This document shows positions 11,448 through 18,532 of a stretch of 18,636 bases of DNA, one piece after another. A program made the translations under genes and the position numbers. Positions within the stretch are counted from its first letter, which is position 1; the number at the start of each line of letters is the position of its first letter. This DNA comes from a virus (Duplodnaviria > Heunggongvirae > Uroviricota > Caudoviricetes), in IMG/VR virus record IMGVR_UViG_2690316267_000010. The stretch is one strand, 5' to 3'. Below the pieces are notes generated by a model. It was given only the letters and a program-made list of their open reading frames with translations, had not been told where the DNA came from and made no database searches.

Positions 11448-11544
11448 ATGACCTCCACATATTGCGTGATGAGCATATTATTTCACGCAAATATTTTGCG
11501 CAAGTTGATTTGCTTAACGCGCAATAAAGAAATGTAATAAACGC
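11448..11544. promoter_or_regulatory. OR-like divergent control region between cro-like and cI-like genes
   Basis: 97-bp AT-rich intergenic region with repeated TTGCG/CGCAA half-sites: TTGCGTGATGAGCAT (11462-11476), TTGCGCAA (11496-11503), TTGCTTAACGCGCAA (11510-11524). Confidence 0.5.
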
Positions 11545-12237
11545 ATGAACATAGGAAACCGAGTCAGACAACTTCGCCAGGCGAAGAACATGAAAATCGC
11601 CGATCTCGCTGAAGCAATAGGAGTGGATGCGGCGAATATCTCACGCCTGGAAACAGGTAAGCAGAAACAATTCACTGAACAAGCCCTGAGTAATATTGCC
11701 AGGAGCTTAGGTGTTGATATTGCTGATCTCTTTACCTCAGACGTCAAAAGTAATACTGTATGTAAAAACAGTATTAGTGAGGATGTTGCGCAGGTGAAGG
11801 ATGTATTCCGTATTGAAATGCTGGATGTCAGTGCCAGTGCGGGAAATGGCCTTATCCAGGGCGGTGATGTCATTGATGTGATTCATGCCATTGAATACAG
11901 AACTGATAATGCTGTATCGATGTTTGGCGGACGGCCAGCCAATCACATTAAAGTTATCAACGTTCGTGGGGACAGTATGTGTCCAACCATTGAGCCAGGA
12001 GATCTCATCTTCGTTGATGTCAGTATCAATCAGTTTGATGGAGATGGTATCTATGTATTTGGTTTTGATGATAAAATTTATGTCAAACGACTGCAAATGA
12101 TACCTGACAAACTACTGGTGATTTCTGATAACCAGATTTACCGTGAATGGGGAATTACCAGCGAAAATGAACACCGGTTTATGGTCTTTGGAAAGGTCTT
12201 AATCAGCCAGTCACAAACCCTTAAGCGACACAATTAA
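11545..12237 (+). CDS. CI-type prophage repressor (N-terminal HTH + C-terminal LexA/S24 peptidase-like domain)
   Basis: 230 aa; N-terminal XRE HTH (KIADLAEAIGVDAANISRLETGK); C-terminal S24-like region with GDSM (Ser) and downstream KR (FVDVS...YVKRL). Confidence 0.85.
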   Translation: MNIGNRVRQLRQAKNMKIADLAEAIGVDAANISRLETGKQKQFTEQALSNIARSLGVDIADLFTSDVKSNTVCKNSISEDVAQVKDVFRIEMLDVSASAGNGLIQGGDVIDVIHAIEYRTDNAVSMFGGRPANHIKVINVRGDSMCPTIEPGDLIFVDVSINQFDGDGIYVFGFDDKIYVKRLQMIPDKLLVISDNQIYREWGITSENEHRFMVFGKVLISQSQTLKRHN

Positions 12238-12257: not shown

Positions 12258-12281
12258 AGCCACCCAAAGGTGGCTTTTCAT
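12258..12281 (+). terminator. Intrinsic terminator after the repressor gene
   Basis: AGCCACC-CAAA-GGTGGCT hairpin followed by TTTT, 21 nt after the stop codon. Confidence 0.6.
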
Positions 12282-12292
12282 TACCCTTTAAA

Positions 12293-12331
12293 TTGCATAT
12301 CTCGCAATAAAAACACTTGCATAATGCGCAA
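12293..12331 (+). promoter_or_regulatory. OL/PL-like operator pair
   Basis: Two 15-bp near-palindromes TTGCATATCTCGCAA (12293-12307) and TTGCATAATGCGCAA (12317-12331), same TTGC-N7-GCAA pattern as the site at 11510-11524; promoter hexamers not confidently placed. Confidence 0.5.
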
Positions 12332-14339: not shown

Positions 14340-14864
14340 ATGTCATTTATTAAAACTTTTTCCGGGAAGCATTTTTATTATGACAGGATAAATAAAGACG
14401 ACATCGTGATTAACGATATCGCGGTTTCCCTTTCAAATATCTGTCGCTTTGCCGGTCATCTTTCACACTTCTACAGTGTCGCCCAACATGCGGTGCTTTG
14501 CAGCCAGCTGGTGCCGCAGGAATTTGCTTTTGAAGCGTTAATGCATGATGCAACAGAAGCGTATTGCCAGGACATCCCCACGCCGCTGAAACGTCTTCTT
14601 CCTGACTATAAACGGATGGAAGAAAAAATAGACGCCGTAATCCGTGAGAAATACGGGTTACCCACGGTTATGAGCACGCCTGTGAAATATGCCGATCTCA
14701 TCATGCTGGCAACCGAACGCCGCGATCTCGGGCTTGATGATGGCTCTTTCTGGCCTGTACTGGAAGGTATCCCGGCAACAGAGATGTTCAAAGTTATTCC
14801 ACTGTCGCCAGGCCATGCCTATGGGATGTTTATGGAACGCTTTAAAGAGTTAACTGAGTCGTAA
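14340..14864 (+). CDS. yfdR: HD-domain phosphohydrolase (YfdR-like 5'-deoxynucleotidase)
   Basis: ATG with GGAGAA RBS; 174 aa; HD motif (EALMHDATEAY); follows the YfdQ-like gene as in CPS-53. Confidence 0.7.
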   Translation: MSFIKTFSGKHFYYDRINKDDIVINDIAVSLSNICRFAGHLSHFYSVAQHAVLCSQLVPQEFAFEALMHDATEAYCQDIPTPLKRLLPDYKRMEEKIDAVIREKYGLPTVMSTPVKYADLIMLATERRDLGLDDGSFWPVLEGIPATEMFKVIPLSPGHAYGMFMERFKELTES

Positions 14865-14972
14865 AAATCAGCACGTACGAATTCAAACTCTGCCATAAAA
14901 GAACATATAAGTAATTTATTAACATATAGATATAGGTTATATTACAAATTGAAAAATTATTGGAGAGCAACA

Positions 14973-15839
14973 ATGAATCAAAATCCATTCTCATTCTATG
15001 ACTTTCTTGGATATTTAATACCAGGTGGTTTTTTTATCCTATTAATGTATTTCTGTGGTTTGACATTCGATCTAGATATTGTTATTGACTTAACTGAATT
15101 GCTCAGAGGTCAAAGTCAAATCTTTGGCATTTTGAACTATGGTTCAATAGTAATCATATCTTACATAGCTGGACACTTTATATCTATCACATCCGCATTT
15201 TTTATTGAAAAATATATGAACGAAGAATTGCAATATCCATCAGAATATCTATTTAATAAGTTATCAGATGACAAAAAAAACGTCTTAACACCATCAAGTG
15301 ACAAACAGAACGAAGACACAAAGAGAAAAATAAAATACTGCATAATCAAAGTAATGTTATTCCCGATAATACCATGGGATTACGCCACTCAAAAACTATG
15401 TTATTCACAATCATTGCCATTTCAATTAGCTAATACCACATGGCTAATGATCAAAGAAGGTTATGAAAAAAAATTCAGAATAGACGATAAATTATTAAAC
15501 ATCAGGACAGGTCTTCATGATGATCTTTTCAGATTGGCTTATCATTACGTCTATGAATTTTCTAATCAACATCAAACAAAAATTCAAAACTATGTTGCAT
15601 TATATGGTTTTTGCAGAAATATTTGTTTAGTATTTGTAATTACATTTTGGATATCATTTCTAACATTAATTTATCGTGCTATAGAAGGTGGGGCGGTGTC
15701 TTATATTTCTATTTCGACGCTACTTAGCTTTTTCTTCGTCTATGTTTTTTATGTTGGATTCGTTAAGTTTTATAGACGATATACTTTAGAGGTATTAATG
15801 GCATTTGCTGTACTTCAGAGCAAAGATGCTATTAATTAA
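14973..15839 (+). CDS. AT-rich multi-pass membrane protein (288 aa), function not recognised
   Basis: ATG with GGAGAG RBS; hydrophobic segments FLGYLIPGGFFILLMYFCGL, IVIISYIAGHFISITSAFF, ICLVFVITFWISFLTLIY, ISISTLLSFFFVYVFYVGFV around a hydrophilic central region; much lower GC than its neighbours. Confidence 0.6.
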   Translation: MNQNPFSFYDFLGYLIPGGFFILLMYFCGLTFDLDIVIDLTELLRGQSQIFGILNYGSIVIISYIAGHFISITSAFFIEKYMNEELQYPSEYLFNKLSDDKKNVLTPSSDKQNEDTKRKIKYCIIKVMLFPIIPWDYATQKLCYSQSLPFQLANTTWLMIKEGYEKKFRIDDKLLNIRTGLHDDLFRLAYHYVYEFSNQHQTKIQNYVALYGFCRNICLVFVITFWISFLTLIYRAIEGGAVSYISISTLLSFFFVYVFYVGFVKFYRRYTLEVLMAFAVLQSKDAIN

Positions 15840-15879
15840 TATATTACCCTCGGGTGCAGCCGGGATAATGGAGAAATTT

Positions 15880-16161
15880 ATGAACACCTTGTTTTTACTG
15901 ATGGCTGAATTCAATACCTCAAACATTGAACTCTCAGCAGTTAGCCAAAAGTACTTTGGTATGAGTCCAGCCACAGCAGAAGCAAAAGCAAACGCTTGTA
16001 AGTTGCCCGTTCCAACATATCGCATCGGCACATCACAAAAAGCAAAACGTTGCATCAATATTCAGGATCTTGCGGAATACATAGACAAAAGACGAGAAGA
16101 AGGACGTATCGAGTGGGAACAGGTCAGAACAGGCAAACAGAAGGGCAAAGAACATCACTAA
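15880..16161 (+). CDS. PrtN (pyocin-activator)-family small DNA-binding protein
   Basis: ATG with GGAGAA RBS; product MNTLFLLMAEFNTSNIELSAVSQKYFGMSPATAEAKANACKLPVPTYRIGTSQKAKRCINIQDLAEYIDKRREEG resembles PrtN-family proteins as recalled. Confidence 0.55.
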   Translation: MNTLFLLMAEFNTSNIELSAVSQKYFGMSPATAEAKANACKLPVPTYRIGTSQKAKRCINIQDLAEYIDKRREEGRIEWEQVRTGKQKGKEHH

Positions 16162-16163
16162 AG

Positions 16164-16189
16164 AAAAAACCCGCCTAAAGGCGGGTTTT
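16164..16189. terminator. Bidirectional intrinsic terminator
   Basis: AAAAAA-CCCGCC-TAAA-GGCGGG-TTTT between the convergent PrtN-like gene (plus) and the 57-aa ORF (minus). Confidence 0.7.
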
Positions 16190-16208
16190 CAAAAAGCACC
16201 AGCTATGA

Positions 16209-16421: not shown

Positions 16422-16841
16422 TTACTCATCATCAATAGATGATACGCAATATTTATTTTTAAATTTAAGGTTCTTTGGCGTAACTTCATCAGAGATATCA
16501 AAACCGTCCAGAATTCTATTGAATGTAGCTTCTGGCATATCATCATGAACAGAAATCTCACCCGATCGCTGCTTTCTAACCATGTTATCCACTCGCCAAA
16601 TTATAGCTTCAGCGTAAACAACATAACTTGGATGCTTGATAAAGCGATGATCACCAGAATTCAAGACGCAAGACGGATCGTGGGGGACACCATCCTTGAT
16701 ACTAGAAATATTAACAACTAAAACACAATAACAATCGTTAACGGGGTAATAAACAGGATCATTACAAATCACATGAAGATGATTGCATGGTCCAGTTGGG
16801 GCAAGCACAGTTCCTTTCCTGTATGGCTGATAATCCGTCAT
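16422..16841 (-). CDS. Unrecognised 139-aa protein, candidate toxin/effector partner of the Panacea-domain protein
   Basis: ATG overlaps the stop of the upstream DUF4065 gene (ATGA); AT-rich; Cys/His-rich N-terminus (GPCNHLHVICNDPVYYPVNDCYC); no family recognised. Confidence 0.55.
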   Translation of the reverse strand: MTDYQPYRKGTVLAPTGPCNHLHVICNDPVYYPVNDCYCVLVVNISSIKDGVPHDPSCVLNSGDHRFIKHPSYVVYAEAIIWRVDNMVRKQRSGEISVHDDMPEATFNRILDGFDISDEVTPKNLKFKNKYCVSSIDDE

Positions 16842-17410
16842 GATAATTGCAAAGAAAATTCCTTAAGTTTCTGAGATTCTTCCATTTTGCCAATTATGCG
16901 ATTAGCCTCATCCTCGCTTTTACCCTCACTGATCAGCATTTCTTTCAGGTCTATAGGCTTACGAGAATTGCCAGGATCGTGCCACTCTGGACAAACGCTT
17001 TCTAAATGCGTCATATTTGCGAGATCAAATCGGTTCATATGCCCATACCGAGAATAGATTTCATCTAAAATCCGGATATCTGCACGACTCAATTCATCAA
17101 AGACCTCGTCTGCATCCATTTCCCTCGGATCTGAACGCAACGATACATTATGCCCGTTCGTCTCTATCAAGTTGTACCAGTAGTCACCAATGCCTTCAGC
17201 CTTACCGCGAATCAAGTTCAGCGTATTCGACATGACTGGTCCAAATTTCATAGAGTAAAGGCTATCTTCGCCGATCATCCTGCCATGCTTCAAAATCGAC
17301 TGGCGGTTAGACAGATAGAGCAGCTTCATCAATTTCAGATATGCCATGCGCCCACCTCTCTTAAGAAGTAGGTATGCAGCCATTTGAGCTACTTTTTCTT
17401 CGCAAAACAT
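16838..17410 (-). CDS. Panacea-domain (DUF4065, GepA/SocA-like) protein, candidate antitoxin
   Basis: 190 aa, GAGG RBS; N-terminal region AYLLLKRGGRMAYLKLMKLLYLSNRQSILKHGRMIGEDSLYSMKFGPVMSNTLNLIRG resembles DUF4065/Panacea proteins as recalled. Confidence 0.6.
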   Translation of the reverse strand: MFCEEKVAQMAAYLLLKRGGRMAYLKLMKLLYLSNRQSILKHGRMIGEDSLYSMKFGPVMSNTLNLIRGKAEGIGDYWYNLIETNGHNVSLRSDPREMDADEVFDELSRADIRILDEIYSRYGHMNRFDLANMTHLESVCPEWHDPGNSRKPIDLKEMLISEGKSEDEANRIIGKMEESQKLKEFSLQLS

Positions 17411-18061
17411 ATAAGAAACCTCAAAGATAGTGAACTTTATAATTATTCTCGATACTTCATGGGTTGCTTCATCACCAACATGAGCTTCTTATGGTGTGCC
17501 CACTTGGGCCTAAGCAACCAGTTACCTCGTTTGTCAAGTTTATAGCTGGCTTTAACCATGGTCAATTGAAGTGATGAGCAAATGATGCTTTCTAAGAATA
17601 ACAGGTTCCCAATAGGCTCCCACAAAGTGTATAACTAGTTGTTTTTCAAAAATGGTACATCCTATCGAGCATTGGTGCAACGCTAAACCGACCACTCCAG
17701 TGAACGTCAGTTTTTTCAGGCATTGCGCTGGTTTGGTTGATTTTTTGCATTTCAGAATTACCGTGCATTTTCAAATGTAGAGATTATTTTATCGATATAT
17801 CATGGGGTTATGTTATTCAGCATCACTATTCAGGAGGCTCAATAGCGGGGTACTATACCATAACAACAGGAAGCGCCTGTCTCATTGCAAAAGAAAATTG
17901 AGATCCTCTCAAGGCATGAAGCTCTCACGAAGTGATGGAAATAATCTTATTAGCCGTTAACTTTGTTAAGGCCAATGATAAACAATCCAGGTTCGACGAT
18001 AAATAAAAAATCACACATTAAACTCTGGTGATATATCTCCCTGCTAATAGCATTGATAGAG

Positions 18062-18095
18062 AAAAAAGAACCCAATAAATATTGGGTCCTTTTAT
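18062..18095 (-). terminator. Intrinsic terminator downstream of the IS1-disrupted gene
   Basis: GAACCCAATA-AA-TATTGGGTCC hairpin flanked by A6 and T4; on the minus strand followed by TTTTTTCTC. Confidence 0.4.
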
Positions 18096-18130
18096 ATAAT
18101 GCCTTCCATACTATCGAAGAACTTCACATA

Positions 18131-18532
18131 TTATTTCTCCGATTTAACCCCGAACAAATCATAAATTAATTTAGAAGTGTCTGTAAGTATTTTAATCTCT
18201 TCCTTTGAGGTTGGGTCAAACGACTTCGCGAAGCTAATTAATTGTGGTGCAGCATCTCGCATTTTGCTTAAAATATCAGGATCGAGCGTTCCTTCATTCA
18301 CCAGATGTGACATCTTATCCAGATAGCCATCAAAATTCATTTCTCCCCCATCAGCCAGACGCTTCATCTCTCCCAGGTACTTCTTCATATCACGTTGAGA
18401 TAATTTTTCAAACTGAGCTTTCAGGTAGCTCTCATTATTTTCATTAATATACACTGTTTCTGATAAATCTGCGTAGGCACTAGAATATGAAAGTGAAATT
18501 AACAGCGAAGCAAATAATTTTAAGCTGTTGTC
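18131..18532 (-). pseudogene. Secreted/periplasmic protein gene truncated at its 5' end by IS1
   Basis: Reading frame is open from the IS1 junction (18532) to the stop at 18131; the sequence before the track's GTG start encodes a signal-peptide-like stretch ...SLKLFASLLISLSYSSAYA|DLSETV... with no in-frame start before an in-frame TAA inside the IS1 inverted repeat. Confidence 0.5.

Follow-up and report, generated by a model that had tools for sequence, protein, structure and literature searches.

A stand-alone relative of Csx27 on a mobile prophage cassette, a candidate membrane protein for phage exclusion or abortive infection

Introduction

Csx27 is an accessory membrane protein of type VI-B1 CRISPR-Cas13b systems with four predicted transmembrane (TM) helices (PMC7642515). 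It lowered Cas13b interference up to 10^5-fold (bioRxiv 10.1101/092577), and proteins of its family were predicted by Makarova et al. (2019), as cited in PMC7642515 and PMC11662929, to form channels that serve to transport or degrade single-stranded DNA (ssDNA). The other membrane accessory of Cas13b, Csx28, is a depolarising pore (PMC12669027, PMC13288109) and provides a precedent for a membrane effector. Here, we describe a gene of 288 codons on a stretch of 18,636 nucleotides (nt) of viral DNA (IMG/VR record IMGVR_UViG_2690316267_000010, called the window in the following), which is part of a lambdoid prophage. Profile comparisons suggest that its product is a stand-alone member of the Csx27 superfamily, and we regard it as a good candidate for a single-gene anti-phage factor.

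Small inner-membrane proteins that exclude other phages are familiar from temperate phages, SieB and RexB among them. Relatives of Csx27 are reportedly linked to natural transformation, ubiquitin-like and DNA-modification genes. A further point of reference comes from P2-like phages. The interval in which P2 carries old/tin has been defined as a hotspot for anti-phage systems (Rousset et al., 2022; PMC9122126), and the third most common cargo of this hotspot, listed as system 3 in Table S5B of that work with 1102 occurrences, is described there as "DUF4760: 1 TM in protein 1, 4 TM in protein 2".

Relationship to Csx27

The protein gave a full-length match to PHROG 12528 (expect value (E) 5e-161, amino acids (aa) 1-288 against profile positions 1-288), a family annotated as function unknown. 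The Csx27 model of PADLOC (PDLC01605) was matched with E 1.8e-5 by aa 6-257 over positions 4-182 of the 206 in the model. When 79 diverse family members, 25-53% identical to the prophage protein, were each scanned singly, 63 matched the Csx27 model (best E 2.2e-10), 20 also matched tm_4, another model associated with type VI-B systems, and a few matched the candidate model PDC-M48A. The register of the Csx27 alignment was constant in all nine members scanned individually, residue 5-6 falling on model position 3-8, and several of the nine extended to model position 179-192. As a control for composition, 40 reversed sequences were scanned, none of which matched Csx27 or tm_4.

The sequence-only reading that preceded this work had recognised no known family and had drawn a comparison with SieB and RexB. 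A Pfam match to SieB (PF14163) does exist (E 1.3e-3, aa 53-107), with a score of 18.8 bits against a gathering cut-off of 26, and the prophage protein was alone among the 79 members in producing it, which marks it as a chance match. In hhalign comparisons the family profile reached a probability of 0.5% with lambda SieB and 0.6% with RexB, and no rexA-like gene is present, cI being followed by yfdP, yfdQ and yfdR. The comparison is thus retained as an analogy, homology being excluded by the Pfam scan and hhalign, and the missing family is supplied by PHROG 12528 and a remote kinship with Csx27. On the strength of the 63 matches, the common register, the reversed controls and the hhalign results, we consider the protein a probable remote homologue of Csx27 with no relation to SieB or RexB. 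It is not Csx27 proper, the type VI-B1 accessory, since neither cas13b nor a CRISPR array lies beside it: the window and the identical locus of Escherichia coli E2 hold prophage genes only.

The family is large. A profile built from 13 relatives retrieved 961 cluster representatives at E<=1e-3 and 210 at E<=1e-30 from a library clustered at 50% identity. Among the members found in two database searches, no Pfam domain was listed for any and all were named "hypothetical". The only NCBIfam match, to daptide metalloprotease, was at chance level, and neither a solved structure nor an enzyme family of Pfam or NCBIfam showed similarity.

Gene, topology and conserved residues

The coding sequence (CDS) starts with ATG and has an identical counterpart in E. 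coli E2, the hypothetical protein WP_001075213 of RefSeq. An alternative in-frame TTG start at 14949 would add eight codons and yield 296 aa. Comparison of the window allele with two other alleles gave ratios of nonsynonymous to synonymous substitution (dN/dS) of 0.17-0.23, and these values together with hundreds of diverged homologues show that this is a real gene and not a chance open reading frame (ORF). The features of gene and protein, in window coordinates, are as follows.

14962-14965, plus strand: Shine-Dalgarno sequence GGAG, 7 nt 5' of the ATG, unchanged in six of six aligned alleles
14973-15839, plus strand: CDS of the 288-aa protein of PHROG 12528, a predicted four-TM inner-membrane protein of the Csx27 family
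14982-15029, plus strand: N-terminal motif NPFSFYDFLGYLIPGG, aa 4-19, which anchors the matches to the Csx27, tm_4 and PDC-M48A models
15006-15074, plus strand: predicted TM1, aa 12-34 (hydropathy, AlphaFold2 helix 5-31, family charge profile)
15129-15206, plus strand: predicted TM2, aa 53-78, with invariant Y64, G67, H68 and S74 (hydropathy, conservation, AlphaFold2)
15207-15593, plus strand: predicted cytoplasmic helical domain, aa 79-207, about 125 aa (net positive charge, AlphaFold2 helices 116-196, conservation)
15594-15680, plus strand: predicted TM3, aa 208-236, with invariant G212, R215 and W226 (hydropathy, conservation, AlphaFold2)
15702-15770, plus strand: predicted TM4, aa 244-266 (hydropathy, AlphaFold2)
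15771-15836, plus strand: conserved basic C-terminal helix (KFYRRYTLEVLMAF), net positive, with invariant R269, E273, M276 and A277

Kyte-Doolittle analysis revealed four hydrophobic stretches at about aa 12-34, 53-78, 208-236 and 244-266, and hydropathy and ORF together uphold the earlier description of a 288-aa protein with two N-terminal and two C-terminal hydrophobic helices around a hydrophilic core. Over 116 family members the central core is net positive (K+R 16.9 versus D+E 12.1), as is the C-terminal tail (3.9 versus 2.1), loop 1 has a net excess of acidic residues, and loop 3 measures about 4 aa. This charge and loop profile points to a four-TM protein with both termini in the cytoplasm, of which only loops of about 16 and about 4 aa would be exposed to the periplasm.

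AlphaFold2, run with 116 sequences, returned a confident all-helical model (pLDDT 85, pTM 0.85). In it, a helix at 5-31 corresponds to TM1 and is followed by a short helix at 35-46; a helix at 52-86 comprises TM2 and continues into the cytoplasm; a weakly conserved linker (87-115) leads to five helices within 116-196; and two very long helices, 198-238 and 243-287, contain TM3 and TM4 plus cytoplasmic extensions. Four TM helices, a feature of the Csx27 superfamily, are thus predicted by hydropathy, structure model and family charge profile alike.

The N-terminal motif follows the consensus P5-F-S-x-Y-D10-F-L-G-Y14-x-x-P-G18, invariant or nearly so, and P5, F6, S7, Y9, D10, L12, G13, Y14, P17 and G18 are invariant in the 116 sequences. 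The cytoplasmic domain has invariant E79, P89, S90 and P131 and a variable linker at aa 96-115; its block D184-N206 carries H191, E195, H200 and K203 and forms part of a longer, almost invariant stretch, D184..H191..E195..H200..K203..N206-Y-V-A-L-x-G212..R215. A further stretch, K265-F-Y-R-R..E273..M276, is conserved to the same degree and lies towards the C-terminus. As placed by the predicted topology, D10, H68, E79, H191, E195, H200, K203, N206, R215, K265 and E273 would form a polar cluster at or near the cytoplasmic face of the membrane. Within the conserved blocks dN/dS is 0.02-0.08 (0.02-0.05 at aa 184-216), and it rises to 0.5-0.9 in the outer halves of TM3 and TM4 and the loop that connects them.

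A variable slot and a mobile cassette

The gene is the minimum in GC content of the whole window. Its GC content is 0.299 (29.9%) and that of its third codon positions (GC3) 0.256; the corresponding values are 0.465 and 0.497 for yfdR upstream and 0.426 and 0.404 for the gene of a PrtN-family protein downstream, and the whole window has a GC content of 0.469. The sequence-only reading had called the gene much more AT-rich than its flanks (here 29.9% GC against 46.5% and 42.6%) and the flanks YfdR-like and PrtN-like; both statements are correct, YfdR being a 5'-deoxynucleotidase. The cassette and its surroundings comprise the following features.

14340-14864, plus strand: yfdR, backbone gene upstream, 96.8% identical to the copy in the N62 prophage
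14908-15848, plus strand: mobile cassette, roughly 0.94 kb long and made up of the CDS and about 65 nt of DNA upstream, with approximate limits set by the extent of upstream and downstream similarity
15848-15879, plus strand: junction CCCxGGTGCAGCCGG-GATAATGGAGAAA, about 30 nt, just before the xis start, common to the window, N62, Salmonella and EC11
15880-16161, plus strand: gene of the PrtN-family protein (Pfam PF11112, E 1e-22) at the xis position, a backbone gene outside the cassette

A 2.8-kb query reaching from yfdQ to prtN matched about 3035 of 5426 complete E. coli genomes. In most of the matches listed the similarity ended at query base 1472 (window position 14859), a few bases 5' of the yfdR stop codon, and at least 80% of the query was covered in only 201 genomes. 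The gene itself occurs in about 205 of the 5426 genomes, in 24 at 99% identity or more and in 181 at 80-90%. Other prophages carry other cargo behind yfdR: yfdS and yfdT, then torI, in CPS-53 of K-12; yfdS, a 269-aa protein and a 3'-5' exonuclease, then the same PrtN gene, at the equivalent dusA-side locus of EC11; and a decayed methyltransferase/exonuclease set in O157:H7. In N62, a 78%-identical allele precedes a small 68-aa gene and an integrase. The comparison of CPS-53-like prophages that had been proposed as a check on the earlier reading thus reveals a variable slot after yfdR.

Window and N62 share only 81.5% identity over the cassette, compared with 96.8% over yfdR. The first 52 codons of the gene (14973-15128) show no synonymous difference from the N62 allele (L005), and synonymous divergence (dS) in the remainder is about 0.5-1.3; a recombination breakpoint inside the gene is therefore indicated.

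About 65 nt 5' of the start codon are common to the window allele, which stands behind yfdR, and a Salmonella prophage allele without yfdR. At the other end, the junction is kept despite differing upstream cargo and differing types of xis downstream, and it may serve as a recombination linker for the exchange of cargo. The shared upstream DNA and the conserved junction before xis set the cassette limits at approximately 14908-15848.

The homologue in the P2 old/tin hotspot

P2-like phages possess a full-length homologue with 44% identity (E 4e-66), which lies between gpA and gpQ and is preceded by a DUF4760 gene. It is the 4TM component of system 3, protein 2 of which begins MTQNPFSFYDFLGYLIPGG (PMC9122126), and the pair of DUF4760 and 4TM genes is present in 289 of the 5426 complete E. 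coli genomes. In the window the partner is missing and yfdR stands upstream instead; tblastn with the DUF4760 protein found P2-type loci only and nothing in the window. The table of cloned systems in PMC9122126 does not contain the family motifs, so there is no sign that the pair has been assayed, and literature searches with the accession numbers, PHROG 12528 and DUF4760 returned nothing relevant.

Distribution and neighbours of the family

Genomic neighbours were surveyed at 80 loci in a collection with one genome per species, drawn from Gammaproteobacteria, Bacteroidota, Bacillota, Acidobacteriota, Chloroflexota and others. At 75 of 76 loci the family member was more AT-rich than the flanking DNA (median GC difference -8.8 points), and in Pseudomonas it forms a 1-kb single-gene island of 34% GC in DNA of 62% GC just after nrdB. 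These data bear on the earlier view of the gene as a recently acquired moron. Its deviant composition and its presence or absence among similar prophages agree with that view; recency does not follow, because the family as a whole is low in GC across phyla, which marks mobility instead.

No conserved neighbour emerged: in an all-against-all clustering of the flanking ORFs, nothing recurred in more than five of the 80 loci. According to Pfam and PADLOC scans, the 142 immediate neighbours belong to 139 Pfam families, the commonest being phage integrase (four), glycosyltransferases (three) and type I restriction-modification specificity, ResIII and AAA_21 (two each), with no Cas family among the 25 commonest. 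The family member thus appears to stand alone, with no fixed partner gene. In one Pseudomonas lineage (L097, 6882-7352; also L067, L098 and L099), a 156-aa membrane protein is encoded 38 nt downstream of the family member. This protein matches Pfam 8xMP ('octameric membrane protein family') below threshold (27.3 bits, cut-off 30) and might be a lineage-specific partner; it was seen at no other locus, and no 8xMP-like partner occurs in the window.

In related prophages of Salmonella, an 84%-identical allele is very frequent (1282 blocks in the index) and is the principal gene in the stretch from cI to xis-int. The homologues of Enterobacter (51% identical) and of Klebsiella phage P7641 (50%) stand directly before a small DUF4224 gene or a 75-aa gene, which is followed by an integrase. 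IMG/VR contains 77 family loci, and at distant viral loci the neighbours are lambda-type integrase, RecT, C5 methylase, Mu-like protein I, and AIPR or PIN_8. To one side of the family member, three related viral contigs (L164, L165 and L168) have a DUF1367 gene and a 103-aa gene in common; on the other side they differ, with AIPR, PIN_8, or a 112-aa ORF followed by DnaB. This may be another cargo hotspot.

Prophage setting

On the minus strand, the prophage part of the window contains a Q antiterminator, replication, Rha and YmfL genes and cro. The plus strand then takes over with cI (11545-12237), yfdP, yfdQ, yfdR, the gene described here and the PrtN-family gene. The last of these occupies the slot that torI holds in K-12 and a small pre-integrase gene holds in N62 and Enterobacter, for which reason it is likely an excisionase gene. 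Beyond it lie three minus-strand genes, one of them for a Panacea-domain protein, then a dusA fragment and chromosomal genes. Two features bear on transcription.

12258-12311, plus strand: terminator after cI (hairpin), then an operator-like repeat (candidate OL)
14915-14943, plus strand: candidate weak promoter of the gene's own, TTTATT, 17 nt, TATATT, conserved between alleles of different upstream contexts and suggested by sequence inspection

The terminator-like hairpin occupies 12258-12275. A 24-nt repeat at 12288-12311 recurs with 79% identity at 11505-11528, in the interval from cro to cI, and both copies have a TTGC...GCAA core; the two may be the OL and OR operators, for which two copies are weak evidence. 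Terminator prediction called nothing between yfdP and a hairpin at 16165-16190, and a consensus scan called neither a sigma-70 promoter directly upstream of the gene nor a terminator of its own. The placement of the gene in an early-left operon by the sequence-only reading is therefore plausible in view of the cI terminator, the operator-like repeat and the co-directional genes with no terminator before 16165-16190, while falling short of proof.

Some further observations were made in the window. The Panacea-domain (SocA-like antitoxin) gene at 16838-17410 on the minus strand overlaps by 4 nt a downstream 139-aa ORF (16422-16841, 38% GC, family unknown). The two resemble a PanA-type toxin-antitoxin pair at the prophage end, and PADLOC matched neither. 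At about 17660-18454 on the minus strand, the identical E2 record annotates a 105-bp fragment of tRNA-dihydrouridine synthase, then a DUF2713 gene with a frameshift, then zur. The record annotates no integrase at this end, which places the prophage border here and any integrase at the far end. A 148-aa ORF at 4089-4535 on the plus strand, opposed to its minus-strand neighbours near the Q antiterminator, is a second patch of low GC (36-38%); it has no Pfam match and looks like another moron. Finally, a prophage tRNA cluster at 2495-2742 on the minus strand was assigned by ARAGORN to Arg(tct), Arg(tcg) and Met(cat); the third is tRNA-Ile in RefSeq, as would be consistent with a CAT anticodon that is modified to decode Ile.

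Discussion

Given the P2 hotspot, the AIPR, PIN and methylase neighbours, the patchy distribution and the CRISPR-associated kin, we infer a role of the family in phage-phage conflict. For the prophage protein, we tentatively prefer the reading that it is a mobile stand-alone membrane protein of the Csx27 family and an effector of phage exclusion or abortive infection, and we hold this with slightly less than even confidence. Anti-phage defence as such, whatever its mode, comes close to an even chance, and abortive infection as the specific mechanism is held less firmly than that. Temperate phages of at least two unrelated types carry the cassette as swappable cargo, at the end of the lambdoid leftward operon before xis-int or in the old/tin hotspot of P2-like phages, and the protein would defend the lysogen, or the cell after induction, from other phages. 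It might do so as a membrane effector that is triggered from the cytoplasmic side and then causes membrane function to collapse, with abortive infection or exclusion as the outcome; we think it less likely that DNA entry is blocked from the periplasm. An abortive-infection effector is favoured over an injection block because periplasmic exposure is small and the conserved, selected part faces the cytoplasm, and the conservation of the motifs across phyla suggests a generic biochemical output rather than recognition of given ejection proteins.

Several points weigh against this reading. The link to Csx27 depends on a single library of hidden Markov models, that of PADLOC. Csx27 itself repressed Cas13b interference instead of enhancing defence (bioRxiv 10.1101/092577), the later reviews PMC12669027 and PMC13288109 add nothing further on its mode of action, and our literature search found no experiment on any member of the subfamily. 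The P2 hotspot also houses cargo outside defence, such as StbA/ParM partition genes. Away from the enterobacterial phages the neighbours are mostly ordinary genes with few restriction-modification or integrase genes among them, a count made without a background comparison. The gene lies in an apparently repressor-controlled operon, has no convincing promoter to itself and might not be expressed in the lysogen. Lastly, the invariant His, Glu and Asp residues could signal an enzyme.

Classical superinfection exclusion, in which the protein would be made constitutively in the lysogen and would block genome entry at the inner membrane without killing the cell, as P22 SieA, T4 Imm and HK97 gp15 do, is in our judgement unlikely. 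It would agree with the predicted inner-membrane location and with carriage by a prophage, and the ssDNA channel predicted for the Csx27 family, as cited in PMC7642515 and PMC11662929, could be turned on phages. Evolution of the protein is also fastest in the outer halves of TM3 and TM4 and in the loop joining them, but the dN/dS values there may simply reflect interchangeable hydrophobic residues. Little of the protein (about 16 + 4 residues) would be available in the periplasm, and the strongly conserved part is predicted to face the cytoplasm. Known injection blockers are narrow and phage-specific, whereas this family spans several phyla with near-invariant motifs. Exclusion of this kind further needs expression in the lysogen, and no promoter was called upstream of the gene.

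Of still lower probability is a benefit to the phage itself during lytic growth after induction. The protein might serve anti-defence or host takeover, for example, by analogy with the repression of Cas13b by Csx27, through inhibition of a host membrane defence or one based on RNases. The size of the Csx27 effect quoted above is in favour of this, and so is the location of the gene: it follows the cI terminator and the operator-like site, runs in the same direction as xis and the early-left genes, and has no strong promoter or terminator to itself. The lambda PL operon is rich in accessory genes, ral, gam, kil and cIII among them. However, many family members lie outside prophages, as in the Pseudomonas island after nrdB, and have housekeeping neighbours in many phyla, and no Cas13 system is known in E. 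coli. In P2-like phages the gene sits with DUF4760 between divergent and convergent neighbours in the old/tin slot, the cargo of which is thought to be expressed from the prophage (PMC9122126).

An equally improbable alternative is a membrane enzyme or transporter-like protein outside phage conflict, acting for instance on a substrate that is lipid-linked or part of the envelope, and carried by phages for lysogenic conversion or fitness. The invariant D10, H68, E79, H191, E195, H200, R215 and K265 resemble a catalytic or metal-binding set, chromosomal distribution is wide, and several loci outside phages have glycosyltransferase, epimerase and WecG genes around them. Yet this association with polysaccharide clusters holds for only about 3-5 of the 80 loci, the enzyme families and solved structures searched showed no similarity, and only defence-associated membrane proteins were matched consistently in the profile scans. 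A diverged member of the SieB or RexB family, as the weak Pfam match and a comparable position in the leftward operon might suggest, is very improbable, being refuted at the level of homology by the sub-threshold score, its restriction to one of 79 members, the hhalign values and the missing RexA partner.

Beyond the single protein, stand-alone Csx27-family proteins might be a widespread single-gene membrane immunity module, with the polar cluster as sensor and trigger, that was later recruited by type VI-B1 CRISPR and by the DUF4760 pair of P2; we regard this extension as doubtful. Csx27 has been known since 2017, and Csx27-like proteins are far commoner as solitary mobile genes than as CRISPR accessories. 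Family members occur in about 9% of complete E. coli genomes, lambdoid and P2 forms combined, and also in recognised phage cargo hotspots. If the prophage protein does protect against phages, a one-gene membrane system would be added to the catalogue of defences, a very common unannotated cargo of P2-like phages would be explained, and a function of Csx27 would become testable in a standard host, with the E. coli prophage copy as its native, tractable model. Without such protection, the proteins would still constitute a large conserved membrane family that lacks a Pfam entry and a structural relative.

Among the known systems beside which the protein can be set is Csx28 of type VI-B2. Csx28 is likewise a membrane protein with a link to Cas13b in its background, an octameric depolarising pore that stops infected cells (PMC12669027, PMC13288109). 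It differs in having one TM helix and a divergent HEPN domain (bioRxiv 10.1101/092577) and in needing Cas13b for activation, and the prophage protein has no PADLOC match to it. With lambda and P22 SieB and lambda RexB there is an analogy of position and presumed function, all being prophage inner-membrane proteins in or next to the leftward operon; sequence and profile homology and a RexA-like partner are absent, and size and domain plan are unlike.

Protein 2 of P2 system 3 (PMC9122126) has the same motifs, four TM helices and 44% identity over the full length, and it too is accessory cargo borne by E. coli phages. There, the 4TM protein always follows the 1-TM DUF4760 protein in the gpA-gpQ interval of a P2-like phage, whereas the gene described here has no DUF4760 companion and resides in a lambdoid prophage. 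Csx27 resembles the prophage protein in profile over nearly the whole model, anchored in the N-terminal motif and TM1-TM2 and reaching TM3-TM4; both have four predicted TM helices, and a biochemical mechanism is known for neither. The prophage protein differs from Csx27 in standing alone in a prophage, away from cas13b and CRISPR arrays, in its length (288 aa compared with 206 model positions), which includes an extra cytoplasmic helical domain of about 125 aa predicted between TM2 and TM3, and in the occurrence of its family in Enterobacteria and many phyla, the described Cas13b loci being notably those of Porphyromonas and Prevotella (bioRxiv 10.1101/092577). Already known are the PHROG number, a homologue tabulated in the 2022 supplement and the computational analysis of its relative Csx27. 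What is new is a large stand-alone subfamily, with neither Pfam entry nor structural relative, that has an added cytoplasmic domain and travels as a swappable cassette in lambdoid and P2-like enterobacterial prophages.

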